A stretch of DNA of 36,164 nt from Paraspadella gotoi (lineage: Eukaryota; Animalia; Chaetognatha). The stretch's first letter is position 1; each line of letters begins with the position of its first letter. The translations under genes were made by a program, and so were the position numbers. The notes under the pieces are model-generated. The model searched no databases and was not told the origin of the DNA. It worked only from the letters and a program-made list of their open reading frames with translations. This document shows, piece by piece, positions 6,753 to 32,564 of the stretch. The DNA is taken from NCBI GenBank assembly GCA_051294375.1, contig JBJCIZ010001037.1, positions 1 to 36,164 of the forward strand, read 5' to 3'.

Positions 6753-7083
6753 CCAAGATTAGAGGCAATCACCCTATCACCAGGCTTTCTTTCCGCCGGC
6801 TCCCTCTTCCCCCTCTCAACTCCCCCCTCCTCCTCCTCCTCTCGTCCCTTCCTCCTCCCATCCCCTAGCGAGTGGACCGGGCTCTCCTCTCTCTCTGGAC
6901 GGCACTCACGGCGCCAAGGGCTACCAAGACCCGCGCGAATCCCTCTTTCGCTCTCTTCCTTTTTCCTTTGTAGTGTATTTGCTGTGGCCTATACCCCTTT
7001 TTATTATTACAATCTTACTTACCTCTTTTTACTTGGTTGAGAGGGTAGTCAGATCCTCTTTCTAGCCAGTTATTCTATCTTCA
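6753..7083 (+). repeat. 5' LTR of element 1
   Basis: CCAAGATTAGAGGC...GGACGGCACTCACGGCGCCAAGGGCTACCAAGACC...GCCAGTTATTCTATCTTCA is colinear with 27239-27564 and ends in CA. It could be 5'-truncated. Confidence 0.9.
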
Positions 7084-7086
7084 GAG

Positions 7087-10103: not shown

Positions 10104-10373
10104 ATGTTTCTAGTAGACGATGAAATAAACGAAGATTGTTTGCGCCGCGCATTTTTCCCGCGTTTTACCGATCCGTCTTGCACGTTACAACATTGGTTGT
10201 TGCACTATAGCCGCTGTTCGTATTGCCGTGCCTGTACTTTCTGCACAATCTGCTCACTGGACGAAACCCACCCCACCCGTTTCTGCCCGACCCTTACCGA
10301 AACATTAGAGAAATTTAAAAATCTCAGAGTTGAATCCCCTACACCGTCGGAAGAATCTGAAACCTCGAGGTGA
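10104..10373 (+). CDS. 89-aa Cys/His-rich upstream ORF with a zinc knuckle (possible first exon of gag)
   Basis: ATG at 10104, TGA at 10371-10373. Contains HYSRCSYCRACTFCTICSLDETHPTRFCP; the last part has the C-X2-C-X5-H-X4-C spacing of the Gag knuckles. Confidence 0.6.
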   Translation: MFLVDDEINEDCLRRAFFPRFTDPSCTLQHWLLHYSRCSYCRACTFCTICSLDETHPTRFCPTLTETLEKFKNLRVESPTPSEESETSR

Positions 10374-10614
10374 ATCCATTTACAACAGAAACTTTAAATT
10401 TTCAAAAAAAAGAAAATTTGAATTTTCGAAACGACGACGCGTTTTCTTCCTTTTTATTTTTCGTCCTTTTTTTCGCCGCCGAACGATTCGTCGACGACGA
10501 ATCATCATCCTCCTCCTCTGAATCCTCCTCTCGTGAATTCCTCCTCCTCCTGAAACTCGTTCTCGTTCTCGCTTCTCTCACTTCAATTGGACTACCCCCC
10601 CCCATCTTCGACTC

Positions 10615-10654
10615 TTCTGTCTCTCTCTCTCCCCCTTATATTTTTTTTCATCTA

Positions 10655-11314: not shown

Positions 11315-13534
11315 ATGGCAGGCAAGAGCGCTTCCTTGGAGGATCTAATGCAACATGAGGATGGTGCTGGTAGACTCTCTGCTAGGTCACGATCAAGAGA
11401 CTCTCTACAAAGCAGAACTGTGTCACTAAGGTCAAGATCCAGGGAAAGGAGTAGTGATAGAAAGAGATTTGAAGGACCCCAATTCATGGAACACAGAGAA
11501 GTGGTAAAGAGGTTTGAAACTGATGAATCAGATGACGAGGGGAACAAAAGCGATACCCCAGATGTTGAAGAACAATTTAGGGGAACACAAGACCAATTCA
11601 CAGTGTTCACACAGAGAATAGGTGATCTTGAAGATGAAAACAACACCCTTAAATCAGAAAACGACACCCTTCTGTCAGAAAAAGCCCAAACTCGCATAAA
11701 TATGGACACCCTTACATCGGAAAGAGACCAGACTGAACGCAAACTCCAGCATGCTGAAAGCGAGATTATAGGATACAGAGAGAAAAACACCGACCTCATA
11801 AGGGAAATCGCCCAGCTAAGAAATGCCCTGGAGGGACTAAAAACAAAAGAAACAACAAGGATAGCCTCTGAGGCTATGAAAGAGCTCAATCTAATTGACG
11901 ATGACCTTGATGAAAATTCTCAAAGGAGAACTTCACTACCCACTTCACAACACCCAGCAGCCCTCATCCCTCCTAAACTCCAAGAAGCTGCAAAACCCAA
12001 ACAAACAAAAAGGACAATCTCCAGCAGAGACGAACATCCAGCCAGTGCCCCAACATCCCCAAAAAGGCCAGAAAGTGCGACAGCATCACCACAAAGAAAG
12101 CGTACTGTTGAGGACCTTGACGAGGATCTACTGCTCCTCCGCCAGGAACTTTACAAACAAAGTGAAGCAAGAGAAAAGGAGAGAGAGGCCCGAGAAAGAG
12201 CAATGGAGCTACTGGAAATTGAAAGGAAGAAAAAGAGGGAGTATAAAGAAAGACTTCACAACCTCTCAGACATGATGAGTGGAATGACAGTAAGAAATAG
12301 AAGCAGTAGCCGCAGTGAAAGTGTAGCATCATCCAAGAATCGGTCAACAACAGGAAGCCACAAAGCGCTAATCTGCGATGAGGAGAACATTGAATCTGGG
12401 ATCTCAACACCGAGAGAAAATGGAGAAAATTCGAAAGTGAAAGGTAAACATTTCCCCAAACGCGATAAGTACACAGCCTTCAGCGAGTATTTTGCGGCTC
12501 TCAAAGAGAGTATAAGAAATTGCATTGGACAGGGTCACACCATGTCGCAGATTGCATGGGAGCTATACCTCCATGCACAGGACAGTAGCTATGGTGGTGA
12601 GTTCCTGCACCAGCTAAACCGATTAGGCCTAAGTGATAAAAAGAAAACAGTAGACGGAATACTTAAAGCCATAAAGATGTCAGATTTTGATCATCGATTT
12701 CTGAGCGCATGGGAGCGTTTTGCTCAGCTTAGTAAAACTGGATCTGAAGATGTAGCCGCCTGGATGAGACGCCTGGAGACAGCCTACGATGCGTGTGCCC
12801 ATGTCTTTGATGATGCCGAAGAGTTCAGATCCAGACGATCCCACGAAATTAAGAAACAATTCTTCAAAGGCGGGGATTTCCCAGAATGGATGGCAGCACA
12901 ACTTCGTCCTTTCCATGACCTTACTGAGCTAGTACTGAACTGCAGAACGCTTGTGACCAAAGAAAGGAACAATAAGCAAAGACAAACAACAAACAACACT
13001 GCTGCGCAGCAACCACAACAACAGCGACCTTTTCGATCCCGCAATCAGCAACAACGACCGCAACATTTCCAACCGCAGCAACATTTGCAACCGCAGCAAC
13101 AATTCCAACCGCAGCAACCGCAGCAGCCACTCCTGCCCCACACCCCACAACAATTCCAACCACAGCCCACCCAGCATCTGCAACCCCAAAGGCCAATCCA
13201 ACCACAACCACTCTTGCGGCAGCAACAACAACCACAGCATCAAGCACTTGCTGCAACAGTGGATCCATTTGTCCGGCCTGATGGATCAGTTTCATTTAGA
13301 CCAAAGAGAGCAGATCGAATCCCTGCACCACTCAATGCAGGAAGGATGCCACTTGATGGGGAACATGACCCAAACTTCAAAGGAAGAATGTGCCTACACT
13401 GCCGACAAATAAACAAACACCTATCAGGACACTGTGGATACCAAAATTTCTGCCTGCACTGCAATTTAGAAAATGAACACACCACTCCTCATTGTCCACT
13501 GAATCCACAACAACAACAACAAAACCAGATATGA
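11315..13534 (+). CDS. gag: Gag polyprotein, 739 aa
   Basis: N-terminal coiled coils; capsid-like motif FAQLSKTGSEDVAAWMRRLETAY; Q/P-rich tract; two knuckles CLHCRQINKHLSGHC and CLHCNLENEHTTPHC; lies directly upstream of pol. Confidence 0.92.
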   Translation: MAGKSASLEDLMQHEDGAGRLSARSRSRDSLQSRTVSLRSRSRERSSDRKRFEGPQFMEHREVVKRFETDESDDEGNKSDTPDVEEQFRGTQDQFTVFTQRIGDLEDENNTLKSENDTLLSEKAQTRINMDTLTSERDQTERKLQHAESEIIGYREKNTDLIREIAQLRNALEGLKTKETTRIASEAMKELNLIDDDLDENSQRRTSLPTSQHPAALIPPKLQEAAKPKQTKRTISSRDEHPASAPTSPKRPESATASPQRKRTVEDLDEDLLLLRQELYKQSEAREKEREARERAMELLEIERKKKREYKERLHNLSDMMSGMTVRNRSSSRSESVASSKNRSTTGSHKALICDEENIESGISTPRENGENSKVKGKHFPKRDKYTAFSEYFAALKESIRNCIGQGHTMSQIAWELYLHAQDSSYGGEFLHQLNRLGLSDKKKTVDGILKAIKMSDFDHRFLSAWERFAQLSKTGSEDVAAWMRRLETAYDACAHVFDDAEEFRSRRSHEIKKQFFKGGDFPEWMAAQLRPFHDLTELVLNCRTLVTKERNNKQRQTTNNTAAQQPQQQRPFRSRNQQQRPQHFQPQQHLQPQQQFQPQQPQQPLLPHTPQQFQPQPTQHLQPQRPIQPQPLLRQQQQPQHQALAATVDPFVRPDGSVSFRPKRADRIPAPLNAGRMPLDGEHDPNFKGRMCLHCRQINKHLSGHCGYQNFCLHCNLENEHTTPHCPLNPQQQQQNQI

Positions 13535-16500
13535 CAGGATACGACGCTCCCGGGCGAGGAACTACTGGAAACTCTCTGCATCTCCCTCACCTATGACCTG
13601 CCCCAATTGTTTCAAAATGGACCCACAGTGAAAAGCCTAATACTCTCCCATTTCAACAACCACCCCCACACTAACCCTGAACAGCAATACAAAAATGCAC
13701 TACTTGACCTCCCCGGTGGCGTCCTAATGGAATGTCTGGCCTCTGCCTTGGATGCCAGAATTGAGATTCTCCAAGAGAATCGCCTTGTATATAAATCTAA
13801 ATATGATGGAACTGATGAACTAACACTGGTATATAATAATGACCCACAATCACTCCTTTTCTCCCACATCAACTTTTCAACCCCACAAACCTTCCTTGAC
13901 AAACTAGCCACACCCCAGCCTATTGTACCTTTGATGCCTTTGCAATCTGCCCCTGTTCAGCCAATGATGACTCACACCTCTTTAGGTGCTACTGTAATAC
14001 CTTCCTCAACCTCTCCACACTCTCTGTCACCACATAGTGAATCTGACATCTCTAAACACACCAAAAAATCTGATATTGAAAATCTTCACCGCCTTGAAAA
14101 CCATGAAAACCATGTAAATTCAACGCTTCTCTCCCAAATCTCCCCATCAAATCTTACAACTGAAAATTTGCCAAAATGCTTTCGCCAATTGAATAATCTG
14201 AGACAAGAGACAAGAGACCTCCTTTTTCAAGCCATGGGACAGGGACCCACAACTGCTAAGGTGAAATCTATCCTTGATGATATCAAGGCAAAACAACAAA
14301 ATAAGAAAAGTACAACTCTTGAATGCATTCCTGAAAATGCAGCTGAGAGCCACCAGAGTGCACATGAACAATCCCTGGAGAATGAGACGGTGCCTAAATC
14401 AAACCCAACCACGACCAGGATCACAGATCAAGCTGCGCTTGTAGCATCAATAAACCATGACAAAGATGGCCGTTTTGGAGACAGGCTTCAAGACTACAAA
14501 ATCAAGGATCTTGTGGCCTTTTGGTTGCCTTCGTCCTACAATGAAGGAAACACAGTAAAACTGCAACAAATTCTTGATACAAAACAACAGAAATTTGGCC
14601 AACCCATGTATCTAGTTGGAATCTTTCCTAACAAAAGGGTGAGACCCATGACCATAGATACCGGGGCAACAACATCCATGATTAGCGAAACCATGGCCAA
14701 AGAACTGAACCTAACCTTCTTGAAACGTGACCCATGCAACATCCATACAGCAAATGGCCCAATAATCTCTGACAGAGTGGCAACATCGCTAGTAGACCTC
14801 ATCGTGGTTAAGGTCCGGATGGAATTCTTGGTCATTGACAATCCTAGCTATCCACATTCCTTCCTACTTGTGGGATCTTCCTTCCTCCGCTCCAACAACT
14901 TTATGCTAGACCAGGATTTCCTGACCCTCTCGGAATCAATCAAAATACCCTTAATGGCCGGCCTAAACAATGCCCAAAAACACATTGATATGATCCAGAG
15001 AGATTACATCTCGGTAGCTGGAGAGGGCCTTCGAATGTCAGGAAATAGATCAATCCCACCAAAGAAAAATATCACTATCAGCGTCCGTCTGGATGAAGCA
15101 AGTAGCAAAAAACATGCTGGGCTCTGCATCCACTTTGAGAATGGCATAAGGAACATGATTGGAGTCCACGCACTGGACATGCTAATCTCCAAAGATCACG
15201 ATTATCTACGAAACCCAGTTAATTTGGTTGTCCAAAATCGCACAGACAAAGAAGTGGTGATAAAGGATGGCACTTACCTAGGAACCTTAAGAACTGTTGT
15301 GGATGAACAGCTGAAAACAGAACTCCAACACTGCGCATCAGCACAAGTGTCAGCCCTGGTCACCAAATCAAAACATGGCAGAATTGCCGAAGCATGGAAC
15401 AATCTCGCCCATGAATCACAAAAGCACACTTGCTTCATTGGGCGATCAACGGATGACAAGGACCTGGAAGAAGGCGAAATACTTGATGATCTGGAGGATG
15501 GTGAAATTGAGGACTCCCAAGAAGAACATATTCCTGATGACGACATGGATTTAGGCGTAGAGGTCCCAATATGGCTGTCTGACAGACTGGATGAGATTGA
15601 CAGGGAAGATAGAGCAAACAAACCAATCGCTTCCAAAGAGACATCAATAATTGAGCGAAATGACAAGCCAAAACATGAAATTGATGCTGCAATCACAAAG
15701 GTTCAGCGTGACATGGAAAAATACTGGGACCAAAAAGGAAAAGAAAGCCTGCTAGAGAAAGTGGTCATTGGAAAAAGGCTGACGGATGAGCAAAGGCGCC
15801 GCTGTGAGGACCTAACTTGGGAGTATAGATGCATATTTGCTACTAACTTCCAACACGCTGAAGCAGGCATACGTGACTATGCAGTGGACATGGCTTATGA
15901 TCCTGATAAGGTTGTTGCAGCAAATCCACGACCCACTGGTGTCTTTCAAAAACAACTGCTCTCCCGCTATATTGATATACTACTGAGAGCAAATATCCTT
16001 GAGCCATCAAAATACTCTTCTGTCGCCAATGCCTTCGTGATTGAGAAAAAGAGCTGCAAGATTAGATCAATTGAGCAGTTATCTAATGCTTCAGATGAAG
16101 AAATCTCAGCAAACTTCCGCCTTGTAGCAGATCAATCACACCTGGGAAAAGCCATGAAACCTTTCTCAAGCTTCCTCATCACCATGCGAGAGATGATGAC
16201 CTTTATGGAGGCAAATGCCTTCTATGTTACAGCTGATTTCTCAAACTTCTTCTACCAGATCCCATTGTCAACCACATGCAGAGCCATAACCTCCATCTAT
16301 GGTGGGGATAACAAGTCTTATAACTTTCAGAGAGTGACTATGGGGTCCCGGCCTGCCTTTTCAACGGCATCTCGAGTTGTGGAACTAACCTTCAGAGACT
16401 GTTTCTCCGTAAATGAATACTTAAGTTATGCAGATAATTTTTCCTTGAAAGCATCAAGCGTGGATGAGAGCTTGGATCAATATCAAACCTTTTTGGCTCG

Positions 16501-19500
16501 ATGCAAACACCAGAACCTCTTACTCAAACCTGGTGAGCTCTTTGTAGCCATGAAGGTTGATGACAACAATGGCGCATTTCAATTCTTGGGATTTGAATTC
16601 AGAGAAGGCAAAATCTTTCCTGGAAAGAAGAAACTTGCAGACTTTTCCTCACGCCCACTACCAACAAGCCGGAAAAAGGTGCTGCAACTTGCCCAATCCC
16701 TGAATTTCTTCCGCACCTTTAGCCCAAGATTTGCTAATGAACAAAAACAACTTTATGATGAACTGGAGCGCCAAAGGCTTTCTACAAGCAAATTTAAACT
16801 TACGCCCAAGATGATCCAACATCTCCGTGAACTACTCCATTTAGTGATGGACAGCAACGGGCTACACCTTCTAGTAAAGGATGATATCCACAAAAGTGTG
16901 TTTCTCCTCTTCACAGATGCATCAGAACTCAGCTATGGGGCAGCACTGTTTACACTTCGAGAGGGGAAACTACTATGCCTCTACTCCGTCTCTAAATCTT
17001 TCCCTCGCCCACAAATGAAATACCACATTAATAGGAAAGAACTGTTAGGATTGTACAACGCCATGCAGCAGATGTCACTGTTTTTGAGGTTTCGTAAATT
17101 CTTTGTGGTCACGGACTCTGCTTCTGTCCACAGTTGGGCACGCACGCAGATTTCATCTTTGCCCACATCTGTTCGCACACCCCTGCTCTACATGAGAGAG
17201 ACCTTCTGTTTCAGAACAATCCTTTGCAAGTCAGGGGATCAGCTGGCAGACCTCCTCACCAGATATGTCAAACCTGAAACATCATATGAGCAGGTTGAAG
17301 ATACTCTATTCAAGCTACACCAAGGCCCAAAACCTGACCATCACCTGGACGTTACAACCTTGAATGAAACCTGTGCTGCAGAAATCCAGGGACACAATCA
17401 AGCTTTTATGGAAAATACTACCAGTGACCATATTGAAGATGTTATCACCGACTCAGCCAGGTCAAGTGACCAGACCTGCTACGCAGCCCCTCATGGTCTT
17501 GAAGAATTTGATCTTCAGGAGTCTAGTGAAGAACTGACAACATTAGAGCAATCTGACAGTGATACAGACTCTGACAAAGAGATCACAGCTTTTGTTGCAC
17601 CAGCTACTAAACCTAAAAAGCATGGACAGGGTCAGAAGCGACCACCAAGTGACTCTGAAGATGAAACAAAAGCCAGAAGATATCCACGCCGCTGCATTAA
17701 GCCCCCAGAGCAACATACCAAACTTGAAGACTCAGATGCTGATGATGAGTCCCAAACAAAACAGCATCCACGCCGCTGCACTTTACCAAAGAAACAAGTA
17801 GTAAAAGTTGCTGAAAAACCAAAAGATGCAACAATCGTGGCTGAGGTATGCAATCGGGAGGGCCAAAGCTCTAAGACAAAAGTTGATAACCCACTAGAGA
17901 TCCAAGTCTCCAGAGTAGATGGAAAATCCTTTCAGATAAATCTTGATTCAAATGGGAAAGCCTACCTCTTGGCCCCAATAGAAATCAGCAAATCACACCA
18001 AGCTGAGCCAGAGATTGAAACACCCGGAAGACTGCTGGGGACACAAAACCAGGAAGGAGTCGCAACTGGTCCAGAGGATACAACTCCGAAATGGTCTGAT
18101 GCCACTCTCATATCTGTGGACACGAACCACACTCACAAAGAACCACAGGATATTGGTTGCACATGCAGAGTTAAACCAAACCCCAGCAGAAGAATCGCTC
18201 CAGATTCCTTAGAGATAATACAAGAAGGTAACCCCACTGACTTTGAACCAACAGAAAGCATCCTTGAAGATGCCATTGCAGCCGCGGGAGCAGAAACCAA
18301 CCCTTGTCCCAAAGCTGAAGACATCACATCAGAAATTGAAAGAGCTCAGCAACTATGCTCTGATACCCAAGCAATGGTTGAAGTGATAAGAATGAATGAA
18401 TTGCCGGAACAGCATGTGGCACGAACAAGATCCCCTTATCTCAATCATCTCATGGAAATAAGACCAAATCTCAAAATCACTGGTACATCGCTCTTCTTCT
18501 GCAAACTCAATGATGATGGCTCAATTACAAACACAGTCGTAGTCCCTCCCACTAAAGCCCAAGAACTGGTGATGAAAATACATTTGGACCTGGCTCATGT
18601 CAATCCCTCCCGTCTAAGATGCTCCATCTCTCAAAAATACTACATTCACAAGCTTCATGAGGCCTGCACAAGATGCTTCAAGACATGCGAGAACTGCCGT
18701 TTGGCACAAAAAGCCAAATTGTCTAAAGGCAGAAAAGTCCAAATTTTTGACTCAGCTGTAGCCAACACCTTTCATGCAGACCTGCTACAGCTGGAGGAGA
18801 TCCATTCCTACAAATACCTCCTCGTCCTTGTAGATCTGTGTTCAAGGTATGTGATAGCTGACGCTCTCAAAGCAAAAACGGCTGAATCAGTGGCTGAGTC
18901 CATTAAAAACATATGCTTTACCTACCAGCTATGCATTAACAGAATAGAGACAGACTTAGGCAAAGAATTCAGGAACAGCCTCATAGACTCTCTCAAGACA
19001 CAGCTTGGCTTTAGTTGTGTCAGCCTAAGACCCTCTCAGAAAAACTCAAACTTAGCAGAGAAGGTCAATGCTACGATTGTGGACCTTTTCCGACGTCTTC
19101 AACCAACAGGGGAACCCTGGACAAGGACCTGGAAAATGGTGATCAGAGCAATCAACATTGCGCCCATCAAATACTCTGATGACCTAACTGTCTCTCCTTT
19201 CAAATTGTTCTATGGTCGAGAGCCTACTCTCCCAAACCTACCTGATGTGACCACAACCCCACCTCATGGAACCGATAATGACTATCAATTTGAAAAACTA
19301 ATCCGCCAAGACGGGCTTCTCCAACGCGTCTGTCAACTCCGCTGCCTTGAGACTCCACCAAGTCTAATTCTACTTGGCACCGATGACTATGAGGTGGGCG
19401 AGAAAATCTTAGTCTGGCGAAATTTCGTTGAAAAGGAAAAGACAACGAAAGTGAAATCTTTAGAATTCAAACTCATGCCAAAATACGAAACTGCCTTAGT

Positions 19501-19597
19501 AACAAAGAAAAATGGTGACCAGTACCTAGTTCAACCAACGGATGGATCAAAACAAAGAGTTGTCCACAGAAGAACAATGAAGAAAATTAAACAGTAA
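13535..19597 (+). CDS. pol: Pol polyprotein (aspartic protease, RT, RNase H, integrase), in frame with gag
   Basis: Frame open from 13535. Protease TIDTGATTS (~14657). RT FRLVAD, ADFSNFFYQIPL, YADN (16427), FLGF. RNase H LFTDAS, RKELLG, VTDS, LADLLTR. Integrase H-X4-H...CENC, HADLL, ETDLG, LAEKVN, with a GPY/F-like C-terminal module (YEVGEKILV...VVHRRTMK). Confidence 0.97.
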   Translation, partial: QDTTLPGEELLETLCISLTYDLPQLFQNGPTVKSLILSHFNNHPHTNPEQQYKNALLDLPGGVLMECLASALDARIEILQENRLVYKSKYDGTDELTLVYNNDPQSLLFSHINFSTPQTFLDKLATPQPIVPLMPLQSAPVQPMMTHTSLGATVIPSSTSPHSLSPHSESDISKHTKKSDIENLHRLENHENHVNSTLLSQISPSNLTTENLPKCFRQLNNLRQETRDLLFQAMGQGPTTAKVKSILDDIKAKQQNKKSTTLECIPENAAESHQSAHEQSLENETVPKSNPTTTRITDQAALVASINHDKDGRFGDRLQDYKIKDLVAFWLPSSYNEGNTVKLQQILDTKQQKFGQPMYLVGIFPNKRVRPMTIDTGATTSMISETMAKELNLTFLKRDPCNIHTANGPIISDRVATSLVDLIVVKVRMEFLVIDNPSYPHSFLLVGSSFLRSNNFMLDQDFLTLSESIKIPLMAGLNNAQKHIDMIQRDYISVAGEGLRMSGNRSIPPKKNITISVRLDEASSKKHAGLCIHFENGIRNMIGVHALDMLISKDHDYLRNPVNLVVQNRTDKEVVIKDGTYLGTLRTVVDEQLKTELQHCASAQVSALVTKSKHGRIAEAWNNLAHESQKHTCFIGRSTDDKDLEEGEILDDLEDGEIEDSQEEHIPDDDMDLGVEVPIWLSDRLDEIDREDRANKPIASKETSIIERNDKPKHEIDAAITKVQRDMEKYWDQKGKESLLEKVVIGKRLTDEQRRRCEDLTWEYRCIFATNFQHAEAGIRDYAVDMAYDPDKVVAANPRPTGVFQKQLLSRYIDILLRANILEPSKYSSVANAFVIEKKSCKIRSIEQLSNASDEEISANFRLVADQSHLGKAMKPFSSFLITMREMMTFMEANAFYVTADFSNFFYQIPLSTTCRAITSIYGGDNKSYNFQRVTMGSRPAFSTASRVVELTFRDCFSVNEYLSYADNFSLKASSVDESLDQYQTFLARCKHQNLLLKPGELFVAMKVDDNNGAFQFLGFEFREGKIFPGKKKLADFSSRPLPTSRKKVLQLAQSLNFFRTFSPRFANEQKQLYDELERQRLSTSKFKLTPKMIQHLRELLHLVMDSNGLHLLVKDDIHKSVFLLFTDASELSYGAALFTLREGKLLCLYSVSKSFPRPQMKYHINRKELLGLYNAMQQMSLFLRFRKFFVVTDSASVHSWARTQISSLPTSVRTPLLYMRETFCFRTILCKSGDQLADLLTRYVKPETSYEQVEDTLFKLHQGPKPDHHLDVTTLNETCAAEIQGHNQAFMENTTSDHIEDVITDSARSSDQTCYAAPHGLEEFDLQESSEELTTLEQSDSDTDSDKEITAFVAPATKPKKHGQGQKRPPSDSEDETKARRYPRRCIKPPEQHTKLEDSDADDESQTKQHPRRCTLPKKQVVKVAEKPKDATIVAEVCNREGQSSKTKVDNPLEIQVSRVDGKSFQINLDSNGKAYLLAPIEISKSHQAEPEIETPGRLLGTQNQEGVATGPEDTTPKWSDATLISVDTNHTHKEPQDIGCTCRVKPNPSRRIAPDSLEIIQEGNPTDFEPTESILEDAIAAAGAETNPCPKAEDITSEIERAQQLCSDTQAMVEVIRMNELPEQHVARTRSPYLNHLMEIRPNLKITGTSLFFCKLNDDGSITNTVVVPPTKAQELVMKIHLDLAHVNPSRLRCSISQKYYIHKLHEACTRCFKTCENCRLAQKAKLSKGRKVQIFDSAVANTFHADLLQLEEIHSYKYLLVLVDLCSRYVIADALKAKTAESVAESIKNICFTYQLCINRIETDLGKEFRNSLIDSLKTQLGFSCVSLRPSQKNSNLAEKVNATIVDLFRRLQPTGEPWTRTWKMVIRAINIAPIKYSDDLTVSPFKLFYGREPTLPNLPDVTTTPPHGTDNDYQFEKLIRQDGLLQRVCQLRCLETPPSLILLGTDDYEVGEKILVWRNFVEKEKTTKVKSLEFKLMPKYETALVTKKNGDQYLVQPTDGSKQRVVHRRTMKKIKQ

Positions 19598-21009
19598 AAC
19601 ACCTCTTAAACCGCGACCACGCCCTGTCTCTACCCCCCCCCTCACAATTCCCGTGGTGCAGTGGATCCCCGTGATCTCCAAATCGCTGAAAACACGTCCC
19701 GCCATCTGGAAACGCTGGACTGAAGCTAAGCGGCGTGGATCTGCCCTACGGATGGACCCCACTCTCTTCCTACCCATTATCCCAACTGTGCGGTGGCTTT
19801 CCAGGCCCTGGACCCTGGTGTGGCCAAACCAGAACCAGTGGCGCCGCCGCGCCTCGGCTAGCCAAACCCTACCCTTTTCTCCTTTTTCTCCAGTGAAAAT
19901 GAAATGTAATAAAAATACATCAACTAAAGGTGCTTTGTCCGCCTCTTCAACTAAAGGTGCTTTATCCACACTATTACGTCATACACGCTCCAGGACCCTA
20001 AAAATTGGGCCAACATTTTATGCTCTTATTTTTTTTCTCGTTCTTTTAATCCTTATCTCTTTCCACTCCCCAAATTAGTATTGACTCAATGCGCGGGCCG
20101 CGGTATATCAAAGTATATTCTCTCTAGACATTTGATTATCCTTCTATCAATTGCTGTCGTGTTCTTTGGACAACTGTTAACCATCCTGTAAAAACTAGTT
20201 CTGGTCAAAACATTCCGATTTTAAGTAATAAATTCTTTATCCAGAAAACAGAAAAAAAATACAACAAAATCGACCACTGCTTTAATTTTTATTATCCTTT
20301 CTCTCCTTTCATCCTTTTCCCTCTCCACCTACATATTTTACCTTTGCCTTAACTTTTCTCCGTTTCTTTTATTCTATTTTTGTTCACCTTCCCTTTTTTT
20401 TTCTCTATCCTACTCTCCTTCCCTTTTTTTCCCTTCTTTACCTTTTTTTCCTTTTCTTTATTTTATTTTCTTCTTTACCTTTTCTTTTCCTTTATTTTCC
20501 TTTCTTTACCTTTTCCTCCTCCTTTCTTTTTTCCATCCTACTTTCCAGTTTTTAAACCTAATTTATTTTCACCACCCAACTCTGTACTGCTTATCGAAAT
20601 ATTCTTTACTAAAATATTATTCACAGGAAGCAGACTCGACTCATCGCCGAACTCATGTTTACCTCGCCGTCTTTACTCTCAGTCCAATTATAAGTGAAAA
20701 CCGAAATCTTTTTTTTCTCTTTTCTTTCATCTATCGAACTCACCTATTCTGTTTCAACTCTCAACTTTGTCACTCGTACTCCTTAATAAGTAATTTGATA
20801 GCCCTCGATTCTCCATCTGCTCAAAACAAATCACATCTATTACTATGACTCAAAATTCAAAACTTTCTTTTATTCACTTTGCAATACAAAAATTAATAAC
20901 ACAATATGATACTCTTTACAAACTACATAATAATTTTTTTTTCTCGTTGATATGATGCTCCTTATGCACTACTTATTCATTTTCGTTGTCACTGTCCAAA
21001 CTGTCCAAT

Positions 21010-21367
21010 TCAAATTCCCCTCGAAACCAATCTGGGACGCGGTGTGAACAGAGGAGAAGATATTGATGTTGAAGTAGCCTTGGGCAGAGCGATGTCTTGT
21101 ACAGACGATGACGTAGCCTTGGGCAAGGGGATTTCCTGTACAGATCGTCCAGTGTATGTCACGAAAGACTTTCCCAATTCTAACTCAGATGGGCTGGTCT
21201 GAGAATTATCTTCGATTTCAGTGGACGAGGTGTCCAGCTCTCCATAAACACCCAGCAGAGGCATGCCCCATCCCTGATCTTCATGACTGTGATGGAACTC
21301 TTGCGGAACCACAAGCTGCTGCATCCTTGGGAAGACCTCCGTGTTATTGTGAGGCCAGCGCATCCGC
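21010..21367 (-). CDS. Antisense spliced gene, exon 3 (terminal), unknown protein
   Basis: Acceptor TTTATTCAG immediately 5' on the minus strand; phase 2 joins exon 2 in frame; ends with TGA at 21012-21010; minus-strand AATAAA at 20874-20869. Confidence 0.65.
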
Positions 21368-21780
21368 CTGAATAAATATAAAATTAAAAATTAAAGCACT
21401 AAAATAAATAAAACTAAATTAAAACGACTAAAAATTAAAAATCATTAAAGTTAAAATAAATAACTTACTAGAACGTATATCCTTCTTTCACTAAAATCTA
21501 CACCTCACCCAACTGATTATTCACCTTTTCTCTCTCCCTCCTTTCCTCTATCTTTCTTTCTCCCTCTCTCCTCCTTTCTCCCTCTCTTTCGCTATCTCTA
21601 TCTCTTTCTCTCGATTCCTCTTTACCTCTCCCATCCCCCCTTTTTTTCTCCCCCTCTCTCCCTTCCTATTCTCCCTTCCTATTTCTCTCCCCTATCTCTT
21701 CCTCTCCATCTCTCTATCTTCCTCTCTCCCTCCCTCTATGACCCCCCCTCCATCCTCCCTCCCCCTACCCTCTTACTTAC

Positions 21781-22026
21781 ACTGGAAAAGCGGTAGCTAC
21801 GTAGGGCCTGTCCCTCCTCCCTAATGTGTTCCGGCGCACATGAGCGCCAAGATAAATCCGTGAAACACCATCGTCAGGCACCCGAACGAGGCCCTGGCCT
21901 TCAAGGACAACTGGGCTGCCAGGAACCCCATGCTGATGATGGTAGACAATGCCTGCAGAGCCTTGGCCATTTTCAACGGCAGTTTCGGGCCCAGTGAATC
22001 GAGCCCCAGGAACAGCCTCGTTCAAT
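21781..22026 (-). CDS. Antisense spliced gene, exon 2
   Basis: Acceptor CTTTTACAG and donor GTAAGT at 21780. The only open frame is the one required by the phase-2 end of exon 1. GC-richer island between CT tracts. Confidence 0.72.
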
Positions 22027-22109
22027 CTGTAAAAGTTTCAATTGACTCAAATTAAATTAATGAGATCTTATTCTCTACCCCCCCCCACCCCGTCAATTTC
22101 TGTTCTCGT

Positions 22110-22800
22110 TCTCTCTCCATTTCACCTTTCCCCTACTCCTCCCTCTCCCTTCCTCTCTCTCTCTATCTATCTTTTTCTCTATCTCTCCCTCTCTTTTTCT
22201 CTCCTCTCTTTCTCTCTATCTCTCCCTCTCTTTTTCTCTCTCTCCTTTCCTCTCTCCTTCACGCTCTCTCTCGGTATTGACTCTTTCCTTCTTTCACTCC
22301 TCTTCTTTCTCTCTCTCTCTCTCTCCTCTCTCTCTCCCTCCCTCTTACTCTCTCTCCTTTTCTCTCTCCTTCACACTTTCTCTCGGTCCTTAACTCTTTC
22401 ACTCCTCTCCCCTCTCTCTTTCTTTCTTTCTCTCCCTCTCTTTCTCTCTCTCTCCTTTCCTCTCTCCTTCACGCTTTCTCTCGGTATTGACTCTTTGTCT
22501 CCTTCACTCTCTCTCTCTTCCCCTTAACTTTTTCTTTCTTCCGCTCCTCCTCCCTCTCTCTCTCTCTCTTCTTCTCTCTCTTTCCCTTTAACTCTTTCTT
22601 TCTTCCGCTCCTCTTCTACTCTCTCTCCTTCTCTCTCTCTATCTCTCCCTCCCTCTTACTCTCTCTCCTTTTTCTCTCTCCTTCACGCATTCTCTCGGTC
22701 CTTAACTCTTTCTCTCTTTCATTCCTCTTCCCTCTACCTCTCTCTCCTTCTCTCTCTCTCTCTGTATCTCTACCTCTCTCTCTCCCTCTCCTTCTTTCGA
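22110..22800. repeat. (CT)n-rich tract with internal duplications (antisense intron 1)
   Basis: CT runs; CTCTCGGTATTGACTCTTT and CTCTCGGTCCTTAACTCTTT each occur twice. Confidence 0.9.
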
Positions 22801-22892
22801 CCCTTAACCTTTAACCCTTAATGCTCGAGTAAAACAACAACAAAAATTTAACTAAAAGCAAACAAAAACGAAAATTACGAAACAAAACTTAC

Positions 22893-23326
22893 ATTTCAAT
22901 CTGGGTCTCCAGCCATGACATCACTGGGAACCAAGCGGCGCCCTTCCTTGATGCCTCACGCATCAGGGTCCCTCGTTGGAGACACCAGGTATAGAGTGGG
23001 ATGCGTGGAAGGCCCATGTCCACGTAACCCTCATCGATTTCCATCATGACGAGGGCCCCGTTAAGTTCCATGTTGTTGGTTGTCCCACCGGCACCGAAGC
23101 GCCGCAAGAGGTACTGCTGAACTCCAGGCAGTGAGACCCCAACATTGGGAAACTCCTTCTTGTCGAATATCTGGCCGGTGTTTCCCCGGGTAGCAGAGAG
23201 TAACGAGTTGGATAGCCTTCGTTTGTTATCCCTGGTCAGTGACATCCTTTTTCCTTTTTTCTCTGCACAAGGGCGCCACGAGGATCCGTTTCCAGAGCAC
23301 CTTTTCCTTTTGTTCGGATTTTCCAT
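22893..23326 (-). CDS. Antisense spliced gene, exon 1
   Basis: CAAAATGG start context at 23326; NLS-like PNKRKR; frame open to the donor AT|GTAAGT at 22892. Confidence 0.72.
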
Positions 23327-23929
23327 TTTGAAGATTATCTCCCTTCACTTTTCAATTGGCATTAAAACATTTCTCCTTCTTCTTCCCCTTTATTTCTCTT
23401 GCAAAAAAAAAAAAGGTTTTTTTTTGTTGCTTTTTGTTGCCTTTTTTTTGTTTTCTTCTTTTTAAAGTTGAAAAATTTGAAGGATGAGAATTGAAGGTTG
23501 TCTCTTTCAGGTTGACGTGGGTAATCCGTTCAGTTCTTAAATAGAAATTGTTGTTCTCCTTTGAAATTTTTTTTCTTTTCGCCGTTTACCTTTTTATTCA
23601 TCTTTTTATTTTTTTTTTTTCTCTCATTTTGTTCTTCCTTGTTCTTTTATCTTTCGGTTGATTTCCAAATGGGCACGATGAAAAGACGAAAACATCCACA
23701 AAAAAAAAAACAAATGAAAATAAAATAGGTGAAACCATACCGAGATGAGCGGCAAAACTAAGAGGATAAAAGCCCTCCCCCTCCTCATCATCACCTTACC
23801 CGTGAGACGATCACATGACCTGCGCAAAAACAAAAGGGGACATCGCGATCGCATAAAATCTCGACCATGATAGCGATGGCTATCAACACATAAAGTTAGA
23901 CAGTCTCAGTTAGCCAAATTTTTTTTTCA

Positions 23930-24262
23930 CCCTCCCCTACTCTTTTCCTCTCTCTCCCTCTCTCTCCCTCTCTCTCTTTCTCCATCTCCCTCTCTCTTTC
24001 TCCGTCTCTTTCTTTCCATCTCTTCCTTCTCCCTTTCACTCTCTCCTCTCTTTCTCTCTCTTTCCCCACTTAAATATATTTTTTTTCCTCTTTCTCTTTC
24101 TTTCTTGAATCTCAACCTCCCCTCTTTCTCCCTCTCTCTTCCCCACTTCACCTTTTCTCTCTCTCTCACTCTCTCTCCATCTCCCGTTCTATCCCTCGCT
24201 CTCCCCCACTTAATATCCCCTTTTTTATTCTTTCATTCTCTCTCTTCCTCTTTCTCTCCCCC
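23930..24262. repeat. (CT)n-rich tract
   Basis: Directly visible CT runs. Confidence 0.9.
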
Positions 24263-24782
24263 CGGTTGAAAAGACAAAAGAAAATGCGTAAAGAAATAAT
24301 AATAATAAAATCTATAATTAAACAAAACGGGAAATATTATAAAATCAATGGAATGCATAAAAACTGCCCCTTACTCTTACTGTACAAAGTAGAAGTGTTT
24401 TCTTTCTTTTACAACGATTTTTATTGGTTATTACAAACAGTTTCGACTCGAAAATTTGAGTCCTTTTCAGCGCAAAAGAGCTCCTTACTCTTAATTTGAC
24501 CTTTTTATTGATTTATATGATTTTTTTTCTCTCTCTTTTTCATCTAAATTTTTTTTTTTTCCTTCTTTTTTTCTTTGAAATTTGACTTCTATTTTTAGAC
24601 ATTGCATATTTCTTGTTGCCTTGCCACGTATGCCTTTTTCTCCCAAATACCCCATCCAAGAGACAGACTCATTGACTTGACTGACACCCCCCCTCCCCCC
24701 CCTCAGCCCCCGACTCCAGGTTCAGTCAATCCAAAGGAACCAAAAGAGATTCGAGATTTGAGCCAAAGTGAATAAACCCAAG

Positions 24783-25841
24783 ATGAACCTGCTCCTGATC
24801 CTCACCGCTGCAGTCGTCGCCGCCGCTCTTCCCCCGTCTGTGGGACAAAAACTTTATGGATTTGACTGCTATGATCCGAGGACGAAAATCCTCCTCTCTG
24901 TCCCTTTCAAACAACTGAAACTGAATTACGGAACAAAATTCACGGCGACTGCGTTTAATGAACAATTCAGAGCCGCATGGAATGCAGATTGGATATATTT
25001 CCATCTGCACCATGAAGGATTTGTGGTACTATCGGAAGTGGACCCCGGCGCGCCACGCGGCCTTGTCGCCGCCATGATGGATGGAAAAGCACACCTGCTT
25101 CAATGCCACTACACCGAAGTCCACCCTGTGGAAAATGATGATGAATGCTTCGCTGACAAACTCGTGGAACTCCCGTCCGGCGCCAGGCGTTTCTTCGACA
25201 ATACTTCTGCCATCCTCGTCACCCACGGCAGAAAAGTGGAGTGCGGCCAGAAGACTCCCAAGGATCATGATGACTCCACCATTTCCAAAATTGCTGATGC
25301 CCTTGACGACGCCATGCTCTCACGAATGGCGATGTCCATCCTAGCAAGAGGTATCTTCAAGGGAGAGTTCGACGAGGACGTCACCAAGTTATTCAACCCC
25401 GATTCCATCCTGAAGCTCATTGAACTTGAGGAATTCGAATCAGACCACATCCTCAGCTCAATAGCCACCAAGATCAGGATGCTTTGGCCTAAGATAACTG
25501 TGGCTTACGTCACAGTCTACACCATCATCGCCATTGTCATTGTGTCGCTCGCCTTCTCCCGGGGAATCTCCCCTCTGAAGTGCTTTGCCTTAGTATTCTC
25601 GGTCTGCAAAATCTTAGTAGACTACGACAAATATCTTAAAGAGACGCAACTGCAAGAAAAGGCAGCACTTTATGAGGAGATTCCCAAGGAACCGCGCCAA
25701 GTACCTGAAGAGATAGTGGGCAACATCCTTGACTGCCTAAACAATATCCTCAATCGCATCGAAGACATTGAGGAAAGGCTTGAGCTCATGGATAATCGAC
25801 CGCCACCAGGGCGACGTGGGGTGAGGTCAACGCAACTCTAA
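24783..25841 (+). CDS. env: Env-like type I membrane protein, 352 aa, with chuvirus/gB (class III) glycoprotein-like motifs
   Basis: Signal peptide MNLLLILTAAVVAAA; YGFDC; GKAHLLQCHYTEV...ECFADKLVELPSGARRFFDNTSAILVTHGRKVEC; transmembrane segment ITVAYVTVYTIIAIVIVSLAF; C-terminal heptads; located between pol and the 3' LTR. Confidence 0.85.
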   Translation: MNLLLILTAAVVAAALPPSVGQKLYGFDCYDPRTKILLSVPFKQLKLNYGTKFTATAFNEQFRAAWNADWIYFHLHHEGFVVLSEVDPGAPRGLVAAMMDGKAHLLQCHYTEVHPVENDDECFADKLVELPSGARRFFDNTSAILVTHGRKVECGQKTPKDHDDSTISKIADALDDAMLSRMAMSILARGIFKGEFDEDVTKLFNPDSILKLIELEEFESDHILSSIATKIRMLWPKITVAYVTVYTIIAIVIVSLAFSRGISPLKCFALVFSVCKILVDYDKYLKETQLQEKAALYEEIPKEPRQVPEEIVGNILDCLNNILNRIEDIEERLELMDNRPPPGRRGVRSTQL

Positions 25842-27227
25842 TCTACACAACGTACGACCTCGTCCTCTACTATCTCGCTCTCGCCCCCCCCCCCCGGCTC
25901 AGAGACTAGTCTCCAAAAACCAGGAGCTCGACCGCCAAGCCCAGAGCGACGACTTACACCCCACGCCCCCCCTCATCCTTTTCCTGCGCTCTCTTATCTC
26001 TTATCCTTCTCTCCTCTCTTCTCTCTCTCTCTCTTCTCTCTCTCTTTATCTCTCTCTCCGGTTCTCTCTCCTCCCACAAAATGCTCGAAATCTTCGCGGA
26101 CTCTCCAGCACGAATGTCCAGCTTCAGTGGCGACATTCCCACGTCAACCGTCGTCAACGTCAACGTCGCGCACCTTCTATAGGAGACCAACGACAATCGT
26201 CTCCTCCTTCTCTCTTGCTCTCTGTTTTGTCCCTTACCACCCCCTTTTCTCCCCTTGTGTTAACGTGCATGACACCTTTTTTTTTGGCCAAGAATATGTT
26301 ATATTTTTTTTTAGTTACAATTACAGATCAAACGGAGGTGTGTTATTGCTTTGGTTTTTTTTTCCGTTTCTATTTTACATGGTACTACTTCTCGAAAAGT
26401 AAAAATTTTTAATTTTTATTTTAGATTTTTCTTTAAATTTTTTTTGTTGAAACATAGCATTGCTGAGTAATCTATATTGCATTGTGCGTTTCATCATTCG
26501 TATGTGTTTTATTTTAGTCAGTATGAATTCTCAGGTCCTTTTTCCGTTAAATTCGAATTTTAAAATGTAATTTTAAATGTGAAAATTGAAAATTAGTTTT
26601 ACAGTATGATTTATTGCTAGTTTTCTTGCCATCTCTTCACGTCAAATTTCTAATTCTGAAACCTTCTAAAATATTTTTTTAATTTTCATTGAAACGTTTC
26701 TAGTTTCATATTTAGTTTCATATTTAGTTTCATATTTAGTGTGTTTTAATTGTTAGTTTTGCTTTATTTCATCTTTTCCCTTTAAGTATCCTTTTTTTTA
26801 TAAAACAACTCCCTTTTTATTTTTTTTAAATTGATATTGATTTTGAATTCCTTTTGCAAAAAAATAACGAAAAACAAAACAAAAAAAAATATAAATTTTG
26901 ACTACTAAAAGTAGCGTGTCTTTCCCACCCCCTTGAGCAATTGTACCCTCCATCCCCTCCCAAAAGCCAACCTTGCTGACAAGACAAGGCGACTTCCGTT
27001 CCGCCCTCTCCAACCAGCGCCTCGTCCAAACAACCAATGAGGGTATCGACTCATGAGGAGCCTAAGACGACATTCCCCCCCACCCCCAAACATCGCGTCC
27101 ACCCCACAATCCACCTGACCCGGCTGGCGTCCGCCTCTGCCCCTGACTCTTCACAGCTCCACGCCCACACCAAGATGATGGCGACGCCCACTTGTGACAT
27201 TCAAGACCCAAGTGGGCGTCTCCGACC

Positions 27228-27237
27228 AAGAGAGGGG
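27228..27237 (+). promoter_or_regulatory. Polypurine tract candidate
   Basis: AAGAGAGGGG ends 1-2 nt before the start of LTR-LTR similarity. Confidence 0.55.
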
Positions 27238-27238
27238 C

Positions 27239-27564
27239 ACAAGATAGAGGCTCATCCTATCACCAGGGCCTTCTCTCTCCCGCCGGGCTTCCTCTTCCCC
27301 TCTCAACGTCCCCCTCCTCCTCCTCCTCTCGTCGCCTCCTCCTCCTCATCCCTGGGAGTGCATCGGGCTCCCTCTCTCTTGGACGGCACTCACGGCGCAA
27401 GGGCTACCAAGACCGCGCGATCTCCTTCTCCTCTCTCTCCTTTTCCTTTGTAGTATTTTGCTGTGGCCTTAACCCCTTTTTATTATTACATAATTTACCT
27501 TATTTACCTCTTTTACTTGTGAGAGGGTAGTCAGATCCTATTCTAGCCAGTTATTCTATCTTCA
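27239..27564 (+). repeat. 3' LTR of element 1
   Basis: Colinear with 6753-7083; subterminal inverted repeat AAGATAGA/TCTATCTT; ends in CA. Confidence 0.9.
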
Positions 27565-27566
27565 GA

Positions 27567-27884
27567 GGAAAACTTCCATTTTTGGACGAGTTAGTCCAAA
27601 AAATATGAAAAAAAAAAATAAAACTTCTGTCTACCGAAAACCAACAGCGACAAAGGTGACTGAAACCGCAATCCTGTCACCATCTAAAATGTCCACATAT
27701 CGACACTCAAGGGTGAGCTTTGTCGTGCCAAAAGATTATGCTCTTCAACGGAATTGTTGGAAAAAGACAAAAATCTTATCCTAGACAAAGACGAAGACAA
27801 TGGCCATAATAGAAAGACTTTACAAAAAGTTACTGAGGAATACCATCCATCAGAAAAAGTAATTTTCAAGGCAGAAAGTCGGTA
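27567..27884 (+). pseudogene. Penelope-like element reverse transcriptase C-terminal fragment
   Basis: GKLPFLD at 27567, TSVYRKPT at ~27623-27646, then STLKGELCRAKRLCSSTELLEK...NGH. These are typical PLE RT/thumb motifs in the right order, with frameshifts. Confidence 0.85.
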
Positions 27885-29861: not shown

Positions 29862-30235
29862 TGTAACATTAATAGTATCGTCAGCGGATAGGAGATCCGC
29901 CTCCACTTCGTTCGCCATTCGTGAACTCTCTCCCTCTCCCTCTCCCACTCTCCCCTCTCTCTTTATTCGATCGTAGTTTAGCCTCATAGCGAATCAGAGG
30001 GCGGAGAGTGGGACTAGGGCAAAGGGTACGGTTTCATGGGCCGAGGGAGGAGGACGAAAGACTTTGGGTTTTCATTAGTGAAGCTGCCCTCGGCCCGAAT
30101 GGTTGTATTATATTTTCTTAGAATAATACTTTCTCTGCGCTGTCTTAAAACTGTGAATAACTAAATAAATATTGCTTGTTTTCTAAACTTTATTTGCGAT
30201 CAATTTAAACCATCGAGAAATAGTGCAATATCGCA
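29862..30235 (+). repeat. Putative 5' LTR of element 2 (~374 bp)
   Basis: Begins TGTAACATT at a composition shift and ends ATATCGCA 3 nt before the PBS. TATA-like sequence at ~30106 and AATAAA at 30164. The partner LTR is not in the window. Confidence 0.7.
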
Positions 30236-30238
30236 AAG

Positions 30239-30260
30239 TGGTGTCACCGACGGAATTCGA
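30239..30260 (+). promoter_or_regulatory. Primer-binding site of element 2
   Basis: TGGTGTCACCGACGGAATTCGA; its reverse complement has tRNA 3'-end geometry: TCGAAT + TCCGT + CGGTGAC + A + CCA. Confidence 0.85.
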
Positions 30261-30404
30261 GAAAAATAAAACAAACCACGCGAAAAGAAAAAAAACCGAA
30301 GAGACACTAAACCTACGCGAAAAACAAAGAAATAAGCGCAAACCATTCGGGCCCTCTCACCAAACAAAATTGAGCCAAAAACTAAATCTCGGTCCATCCT
30401 AGAT

Positions 30405-32223
30405 ATGGCAAAACTGCTCGGAATTGGTGAGAAGGGGGCCAGCAAAGATGCGATACCGCCGCTGCAACCCACCGCACCGGCCGGAAGAAAAACGCAAGAC
30501 ACTACGCAAGGCTTGGTGGGGGCCTACTTGGATAGGCGAACGGGAATGGTCGTCTATCACGACGGCAGGACCGAACCCTACCAATCAATGGACGACTTGA
30601 CGGCCGGGCTTGACAAGATCAAGCTTGTCGATGACGAAGAGGGCGCCGCCACCAACGGACCAACGGACAGCAGCGGCAAACCACACCTTCTAAACCTAGA
30701 CGAGAATCTGAGAAGGATCGCGGAAGGAAAGAAAGGCAACATGGGCGCCGCAATTACCGAGATGTTGGCCTTGATAAACGATAACAAGGTAGAGTTCCGC
30801 CGCGCCGCAGCGGAATCACGCCAAGCGGCCGCAGAGACCAGGGCTCTCGCCCGAAAGATGACCGACTTAGCACAAGCGGTAGAAGAACTGGCAACGACAC
30901 CAAGGGAAGAAGGCCCTGACGCCTACGCGCCGGAGGACCGCGGAAGGAGCACATCCGCAGGCAGAAACGCCGGAGGAGCAGGCCCGCGCTCGATTTCAGC
31001 GAACCCGCTCTCACGCGCGCCGATTAAGATGGACAGGCGGCGCGAAGGTGAAAAACCAATGGAGTTCTTGAGAGGCATCTACAGGAACATCAAGAATTGC
31101 GATTTCGAAGAGAGGCGGGTGAACGAGCAACTACAAGCCGTCCTCGCGCGCGACGAGGAAGCAAATTGGTACATCGACCCCATAGGCGGCAGCCTATGGA
31201 AAGGCCTCGAAGCGATGTGCAAAGAATCGTCGGTCACGGCGGCAGAAATAGCCGAAAAGATAGTGGTGAAAGTGGACCCAAAGGAACACTCCGAATACGG
31301 ACTCCCACTAGTAAATTCCATCTACAAAAAATTCGACTGCGTCGCACCGGAAGAACGTGACGCAGTCTCGCGCCATGTCGCCCGCTTACTAACGAAAGCG
31401 CTAGACCCGTACGCTCCTGGCATCTCGAGAGAAGTCCTCAAATTCAGAAACCTCATCGACACGGGAAACACGCCGGGAACTAGGAAAGGAAATAGAGTGG
31501 ATCCTGCGGGGTTGGCTCGAAACTTACGGATAACAAATCGGAAGGCACCGCCCGCCGCTTCATAAATTCTGTAAAGGAGAACGACCGTCAAATCCTCACG
31601 GACTCGCTCCTGAAGAAGGACTGAGCGACAAAAACCCCGCCGAAAGCGCGAACGCCCTATATCAAGGAGCAATGATGCAGGAAGCAAACAACACCCGTGA
31701 GCTCATGGAGAAGCTCACCAAAAGCATGTCGGCGATCCAAAAGGCCGTCGAAACCAAGAAGGACGACGGAAAATGGAGAGGACGCCAACCCAGAGACACT
31801 AGACGCCCCGAATGGCGCGACAGACGCGACGGGGGAGGCGACAGACGCTGGCAGGGCAGGCAAACCCGCACGGACAAAAATTTCCGAAGAGATAGATTTG
31901 AATTTAGACGCAGAGACGCAGTTGTAACTGATGAATTAGATGATGTGCAAACCACTAATAAAGCTTTCGAAAATTACAATTGCTCATTATTACCATATCC
32001 AAAGTCAGAAAAAGGTAAACCCCCAGAGAGGGTGAAAGCGGCGAAGCTAGCGAACGACGCCGCTGACAGAATCAAAAACGCTGCAAGGAAATGGCAACCG
32101 TCTGACGCCCTAGCGAGATTCGCCGACTGCGCGAAAACAGCAATCAAATTCAAGGGAAAAGACGCAGCAGCTAGGCTGTACAAGCTTTTTGCCCCGCTAG
32201 GGTTAGAGACAGACACCTGTTAG
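30405..32223 (+). pseudogene. gag: gag-like region of element 2, broken into ORFs 30405-31565 and 31672-32223
   Basis: Position after the PBS; coiled coil; capsid-like RRREGEKPMEFLRGIY; Arg-rich basic segment; interrupted by frameshifts or stops. Confidence 0.65.
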
Positions 32224-32564
32224 CAACAGCGATAGTCAAAGAATCGGAGGTCCCTTGGAAAAACATTCTCAGTGAAAGACAAATTTGCACATGTCAAACG
32301 CTTAAAAGCATGCGAAAAACTCTGTAAGAAGGCGGCGAACCGTGGAAACGGTAGGCGAAGAGAAGCAACGCCTCCGCCGCAAACGACGGCGCAAGATAAA
32401 ACAGGCAAACAGGAGCAAGGCAAAGCCAAGACAAGACTTAGAACGTTCGTAGAATTCAGCGGGGCAAAATCAAGGAAAATGGTTTACAACCCTACCTACA
32501 CAATCATTGGAACGAACCAAGGCGAATCCTTGCACCAGGAGACGATCAGAAAGATCGAGCAAAG

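Follow-up and report, generated by a model that had tools for sequence, protein, structure and literature searches.

Can a long terminal repeat (LTR) retrotransposon keep a gene with introns, and what would such a gene do for it? The question is raised by the window analysed here, a stretch of 36,164 nucleotides (contig JBJCIZ010001037.1, forward strand), in which a Ty3/gypsy-like element appears to hold, antisense to its gag and pol, a gene split into three exons. Introns are expected to be lost from retrotransposons, and animal LTR elements mostly encode their accessory genes as single open reading frames (ORFs) on the sense strand. The original prediction had described the antisense gene from the sequence and had seen in it either a nuclear regulator encoded by the element or a captured gene, with HBZ of human T-cell leukaemia virus type 1 (HTLV-1) as the precedent.

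A predicted spliced frame on the minus strand

The antisense three-exon structure is very probably a real protein-coding gene, and the predicted coordinates of its exons were upheld. Its parts are the following:

22893..23326, minus strand: coding exon 1 (434 nt), with the ATG, a basic segment resembling a bipartite nuclear localisation signal (NLS; residues 6-27) and then a hydrophobic, probably folded region
22027..22892, minus strand: intron 1, 866 nt, GTAAGT...TACAG, with a T-rich start and a GA-rich core
21781..22026, minus strand: exon 2, 246 nt, symmetric (phase 2-2), with the first HHxH motif
21368..21780, minus strand: intron 2, 413 nt, GTAAGT...TTCAG, with a GA-rich core and a T-rich 3' end
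21010..21367, minus strand: exon 3 (358 nt), with the second HHxH motif, then a Ser/Thr/Pro-rich tail and the TGA
20869..20874, minus strand: candidate poly(A) signal, weak, seen in the sequence
23800..23819, minus strand: putative 20-nt non-coding upstream exon, a strong acceptor followed by a GTAAGG donor

As predicted, the spliced frame of 1038 nt encodes 345 amino acids and a TGA with no internal stop, both donors read GTAAGT and each intron is in phase 2. The acceptors, described earlier as pyrimidine-CAG, kept part of that description: TTTTACAG and TATTCAG do end in CAG and are T-rich, but they are T/A-rich rather than pyrimidine-rich, acceptor 1 having a short T run in place of a long pyrimidine tract. 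The start context TCAAAATGG is present, and so is the AATAAA at 20874, although the latter adds little to the gene call because it is one of 36 on the minus strand inside the element.

The exons are balanced in base composition (GC, the guanine-cytosine fraction, 0.51-0.57) and the introns are poor in C (2-4%). A segmentation blind to splice motifs placed composition edges at 23301/22900, 22065/21779 and 21370/21034. Donor 1, donor 2 and acceptor 2 lie 7, 2 and 3 nt from an edge, and acceptor 1 lies 39 nt away; a GTAAGT within 5 nt of a given edge has a p of about 0.005. When GT/AG combinations within 40 nt of the edges were enumerated, 4 of 972 yielded a frame of at least 330 amino acids, and the sole combination having GTAAGT at both donors and a T-rich CAG at both acceptors is the exon set listed above. 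In Markov simulations that kept the dinucleotide make-up, with 20,000 trials for each exon, the three exons were open by chance in 1.7%, 30% and 4.7% of cases, with a product of 2.3e-4, or 2.6e-5 when both phases are matched. Moreover, the exons overlap no sense ORF, and the sense frames across them are closed. As a separate observation, a stretch of 73 nt further downstream (20816-20744, minus strand) is bracketed by an acceptor and a donor and may be an extra or decayed exon.

The gene and the retrotransposon around it

Judged from its sequence, the element around the antisense gene is a divergent 20.8-kb LTR retrotransposon of the Ty3/gypsy type, and the gene is probably a part of it. The earlier claim of a spliced gene lying antisense inside such an element gained support from the frame, the position, the composition edges and the motif combinations. 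The gene begins head-to-head with an env-like ORF, 1.46 kb short of it, and ends 1.4 kb past pol:

6754..7086, plus strand: left LTR-like repeat, abutting a satellite array, 86% identical by blastn to 27240-27567
10104..10373, plus strand: small Cys-rich ORF of 89 aa, in sense orientation before gag; its C-x2-C-x6-H-x4-C knuckle has the spacing of the two knuckles in gag
11315..13534, plus strand: gag-like ORF, 739 aa, with a coiled coil and two Cys/His knuckles; its TGA is in frame with pol
13535..19597, plus strand: pol, 2020 open codons, protease-reverse transcriptase (RT)-RNase H-integrase, RT motif YADN
23327..24782: 1.46 kb separating the start of the antisense gene from that of the env-like ORF, which point away from each other; putative site of an internal, possibly two-way promoter
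24783..25841, plus strand: env-like ORF, 352 aa, with an N-terminal signal-like hydrophobic stretch (residue 3) and a transmembrane stretch near residue 240
27228..27237, plus strand: polypurine-tract-like run in the sequence directly before the right LTR
27240..27567, plus strand: right LTR-like repeat

All 16 low-complexity CT/GA blocks of the element have one polarity, three of them lying within the two introns, and none was found in the right flank or in the second element of the window. In addition, GTRAG donors are depleted on the sense strand of the element (9 against 18.8 expected, P=0.01), GTAAG even more so (1 against 7.3, P=0.006), whereas on the antisense strand they are not (56 against 60). 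Depletion on the sense strand would be expected if the sense RNA must stay unspliced, and together with the shared polarity it fits a long residence in a retrotransposing unit. Reverse transcription copies the sense RNA, where antisense introns read as non-spliceable complements, which is the reason why introns can persist in this orientation. The strand bias of the donors agrees with the earlier suggestion that introns in antisense orientation are not removed from the sense genomic RNA. The third-position GC is 0.55 in the antisense gene, 0.40 in gag, 0.43 in pol and 0.59 in the env-like ORF. Around the gene no terminal inverted repeat with a target duplication was found; a 13-bp inverted match (20869-20881 and 24764-24776) was rejected as a terminal repeat for having no flanking target duplication.

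Eight DNA runs from two studies and one organism contain 58-80% of the words of the stretch, and one of them may be the source of the window itself; no RNA run was among those listed. Four runs were compared over 20700-22150, an interval that takes in exons 2 and 3, intron 2 and the 3' end of intron 1. Run X5 covers exon 2 with no listed difference there or at the three splice sites covered; run X1 covers exon 3 and acceptor 2, exon 2 being uncovered. Exon 3 has two isolated substitutions (codons 295 and 297), present in both X1 and X5 and both synonymous. Outside the exons, X5 has at least six substitutions and four small deletions among the differences listed. X1 has at least two different contigs across part of intron 2, and its exon 3 contig has a depth of 149.6 against 20.6 and 29.2 (5-7 times), a weak hint of several copies, depth not being copy number. 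Runs X9 (organism B) and X12 (RNA by guess) match simple repeats only, with no exon cover or splice joint, and are uninformative on expression.

The predicted protein and its possible role

The first 40 of the 345 residues are basic (13 K/R) and contain the NLS-like motif. Residues 41-145 are hydrophobic enough to fold, residues 146-270 carry two aromatic-H-H-x-H motifs (at 174 and 252), and residues 271-345 form the Ser/Thr/Pro-rich tail, which is disordered. No transmembrane stretch was found in the protein, nor any leucine heptad (L-x6-L-x6-L) or bZIP family match, and its three cysteines form no CxxC. Two HHxH motifs arose in none of 200,000 shuffles and two loose His clusters in 3, the test being post hoc; the pair is the most useful clue to a possible metal site.

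Searches were made exon by exon rather than with the spliced protein, and the large protein collections were queried with exon 1. Exon 1 had no match at E<=0.001 among 1.84 billion representatives, none among 174 candidates from longer proteins, and none among PDB sequences or phages; its top score in the ESM Atlas, 0.81, is a lead only. Exons 2 and 3 matched nothing in Pfam, NCBIfam, PHROGs or PDB sequences (best E 0.55 and 0.22), none of the 34 and 38 candidates from viral contigs, respectively, and for exon 2 the best E against plasmids was 3. The absence of a recognisable domain, as reported earlier, was borne out: at E up to 10, no Pfam family matched any of the three exons. Single-sequence models were unusable (pLDDT, the predicted local distance difference test score, 36 for exon 1 and 39 for exon 2), and a fold search with the exon 1 model gave a best Z of 2.0, which is no evidence either way. 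By eye exon 1 may resemble a winged-helix or BEN domain; no Pfam match was found for it, and the model and its Z score speak neither for nor against the likeness. Other candidates were discarded. A metagenome locus (L001) matching over 25 residues is a bacterial response-regulator gene and a chance match. Exon 2 resembles by eye a cupin (PF07883), yet hhalign gave a probability of 0.7%, Pfam no match, and 288 of 500 shuffles scored as well against the 6-sequence profile. Finally, a duplication between exons 2 and 3 was not supported, as the two do not align with each other.

We tentatively favour, while holding it far from assured, the explanation that the gene is the element's own accessory gene and that its protein, predicted to be nuclear, regulates transcription or silencing of the element. 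Antisense transcription would start from an internal promoter in the 1.46-kb gap, head-to-head with the env-like ORF, or further up if the possible 20-nt upstream exon is used. The host spliceosome would remove the introns, and the protein would be imported into the nucleus and there control the element's RNA or its silencing. The introns would pass every round of reverse transcription, the sense genomic RNA carrying only their complement, without splice signals. The regulatory role is proposed by analogy with Grande gene23, the Retand TRP28 ORFs and HTLV-1 HBZ, no domain supporting it directly; the nuclear regulator of the original prediction has the NLS-like motif and this analogy as its two grounds. 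In its boldest and rather doubtful form, the explanation would describe an env-bearing animal Ty3/gypsy lineage, so far undescribed and organised like a complex retrovirus, whose two-way internal promoter drives env and, in the opposite direction, a multi-exon gene for a new nuclear family of histidine metal-binding proteins that switches the element on or counters its silencing by the host, with introns inherited indefinitely through reverse transcription.

Other explanations can be proposed for the same locus. Intron-bearing accessory genes are common in DNA transposons, and the antisense gene might be left over from a different mobile element, or have been inserted just once, into this copy, rather than being a regular part of the family. 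The 13-bp inverted match that flanks it would agree with such an origin, which we nevertheless regard as improbable: by our estimate this 13-mer is near chance for A/T-rich DNA, it has no flanking target duplication, no transposase-like match was found, and the variety and depth of the X1 contigs hint weakly at several copies. Alternatively, a host gene may have been captured antisense as unspliced or genomic sequence and now travel as a passenger that does nothing for the element. The ordinary spliceosomal structure, the own start context and poly(A) signal, and a third-position GC above that of gag and pol, though near that of the env-like ORF, can be explained in this way. Exon 1 has, however, no relative among the 1.84 billion representatives, the introns resemble the remaining non-coding DNA of the element, the frame stayed open while simple repeats filled the introns, and transduced genes are usually sense-oriented according to PMC7264820. 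The captured gene of the original prediction is therefore less likely where a recent capture is meant, and on the whole we consider it unlikely.

The histidine motifs raise a further possibility, namely that the element encodes not a plain transcription regulator but a metal-binding enzyme or modifier, with the HHxH pair as its metal site and with chromatin, RNA or a defence protein of the host as its target. The rarity of the motif pair in shuffles, with the post hoc limit given above, speaks for it, as do the enzymatic extra ORFs of rotifer LTR elements (PMC5408684). No enzyme family was matched, the cupin reading failed, exons 2 and 3 do not align mutually, and the motifs lie on CAT/CAC-rich DNA and could come from slippage, so that such an enzyme seems quite unlikely. 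It is very improbable that the antisense RNA is the working product, or that the frame is a chance arrangement. Non-coding antisense RNAs are described for micropia and TART and HBZ RNA is bifunctional (PMC7264820 and PMC10186651), and the want of any homolog would suit this too, but the joined frame has a chance of about 3e-5 before splice motifs are counted, and the exons stand opposite closed sense frames.

Several observations weigh against an accessory regulatory gene carried by a mobile element. Its putative function has no support from any homolog, family or fold. The gene is seen in short contigs of two runs, over exons 2 and 3, and its presence in many element copies is putative; two synonymous changes out of two are not significant (chance about 0.12 for transitions) and too few for a selection test. 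Moreover, in X5 8 nt are inserted, next to a substitution, at codons 342-343, when four codons remain before the stop; this copy therefore ends in another frame, and the end of the protein is not common to both runs. The argument from polarity is weakened by the adjoining satellite, whose CT blocks, 9 of 9, run the same way. The sense strand of the element has 16 AATAAA against 10.3 expected, four of them clustered near 21371-21455, towards the 3' end of intron 2, where they could cut short the full-length genomic RNA. The present mobility of the element seems uncertain because its LTRs diverge, have no TG starts and are not flanked by a visible target duplication, and because its RT reads YADN.

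Known systems and neighbouring features

Antisense additional ORFs (aORFs) between pol and the 3' LTR have been described in maize Grande (gene23), rice RIRE2 and the Retand elements (TRP28 ORFs; PMC7264820, PMC11963269). PMC7264820 names their function as an open question and describes gene23 as nuclear, with a promoter of its own upstream. Like these plant Gypsy aORFs, the gene reported here runs antisense in a long 3' internal region of low complexity that follows pol, and its function is uncharacterised. It lies between pol and the 3' LTR, as does an aORF-3R. The plant ORFs encode TRP28 (PF04195), whereas here neither PF04195 nor any other Pfam family was matched; two spliceosomal introns are present here, while the word 'intron' is absent from the text of both PMC7264820 and PMC11963269; and an env-like ORF follows the gene, which Retand elements do not have. 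The host, too, differs from theirs in being probably an animal, and likely an invertebrate, to judge from the env-like ORF, the start context and the splice signals. The extra gene brtn, found in Boty-like Gypsy elements from Botrytis and Sclerotinia (PMC7264820 and PMC8365987 cite it), is also antisense in Ty3/gypsy, although fungal, and the protein described here has no Cys-cluster. By layout the antisense gene belongs with the aORFs; in its protein neither TRP28 nor bZIP is found.

These plant Retand/Grande and fungal Boty ORFs are closer precedents than HBZ. HTLV-1 HBZ and HTLV-2/3/4 APH are spliced and antisense, HBZ being driven from the 3' LTR and having a bZIP (PMC10186651). They share with the present gene the spliced antisense layout in an LTR-bounded element with an envelope gene and, as proposed here, a nuclear protein. 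The HBZ precedent thus stands for the layout and falls for the protein, which has no leucine heptad or bZIP match; in addition the present gene precedes env and is separated from the LTR by about 4 kb, and HTLV-1 is a retrovirus whereas this element is Ty3/gypsy-like. Among animal Ty3/gypsy elements, env is carried by errantiviruses in the broad sense (PMC13524379) and by Oikopleura Tor (PMC4402516), which share the gag, pol, env-like order with this element; in Tor3b/4b, env is driven by an internal promoter after pol, the arrangement proposed here. No antisense gene is mentioned for either: the word 'antisense' occurs 0 times in PMC13524379, and in the Tor passages of PMC4402516 it refers to probes. 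The present element differs from both in that its pol has no close relative in the protein collection and its env-like ORF is short and unclassified. Rotifer Juno/Vesta (PMC5408684) and planarian Burro (PMC6431247) have extra ORFs, described in the passages seen with no antisense gene.

Among the papers listed in literature searches, none described an antisense gene with introns in a Ty3/gypsy element of an animal, although one may exist in subscription journals, in Repbase or in supplements, for instance in the element lists that accompany PMC13524379. Plant and fungal Gypsy elements and HTLV-1 are known to have antisense accessory ORFs; a spliced orphan in an env-like-bearing, probably animal element is probably new. 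Three-exon antisense genes would escape annotation based on ORFs. If this gene is a regular part of its family, invertebrate env-bearing elements can carry spliced regulatory genes as complex retroviruses do, and an orphan protein family becomes available to be tested as a self-regulator or anti-silencing factor.

Within the element, pol has Pfam matches in the order protease, RT, RNase H and integrase (370-452, 877-1020, 1120-1203 and 1670-1828), and the closest solved structure to its RT is Ty3 RT/RNase H (E=2e-15). The YxDD of RT is replaced by YADN at residue 965 (about 16427-16438, plus strand); YVDN occurs in the RTs of C. elegans Cer7-12, with activity undetermined (PMC554778). None of 4679 candidates from the protein collection was related to pol at E<=1e-20, a further search gave one relative at 22% identity among 6147 candidates, and neither RT nor the env-like ORF had relatives among viral contigs. 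The env-like ORF has no solved relative, and its match to PF24664 (viral fusion) at E=0.007 is below the cut-off. The gag TGA is followed by CAG (13532-13537, plus strand) with pol in the same frame and without a start of its own, so stop-codon readthrough is likely; no stable structure or hairpin was detected 3' of the gag stop (z=+1.6). A 165-codon sense frame (19581-20078, plus strand) with no family match overlaps the end of pol and has a hydrophobic stretch at its end.

The LTR alignment has 298 matches, 16 mismatches and 33 gap columns out of 347, the repeats being about 330 bp long. Both end near TCTTCA and their starts share AAGAT, without TG; no target-site duplication was seen at their ends, the left of which abuts noisy satellite. 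Such divergence of the LTRs beside 8.3 kb of unbroken gag-pol may be due to selection, to recombination that produced the element or to noise in the reads close to the satellite. The 89-aa ORF (10104-10373, plus strand) contains a run of CxxC units with the knuckle at its end and may be a second accessory gene; it matched no Pfam family. Near it a short minus-strand frame (10402-10635), acidic and then basic, adjoins a GA-rich block and may belong to a second antisense gene. Strong donors were noticed in the 5' region at 11197, 8935, 8149, 7271 and 7022. The sequence after the env-like stop (25842-26260) is of high complexity, with open frames on both strands and a minus-strand GTAAGT at 25957. 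At 29900-36164 (plus strand) lies the second, unrelated LTR element, with pieces of gag, protease and RNase H in several frames; tblastn at E<=0.01 detected nothing in it that resembles the first pol. At the other end of the window, the satellite array (1-6753) has a repeat of about 535 bp, composed of subunits of about 50 bp with many small indels.
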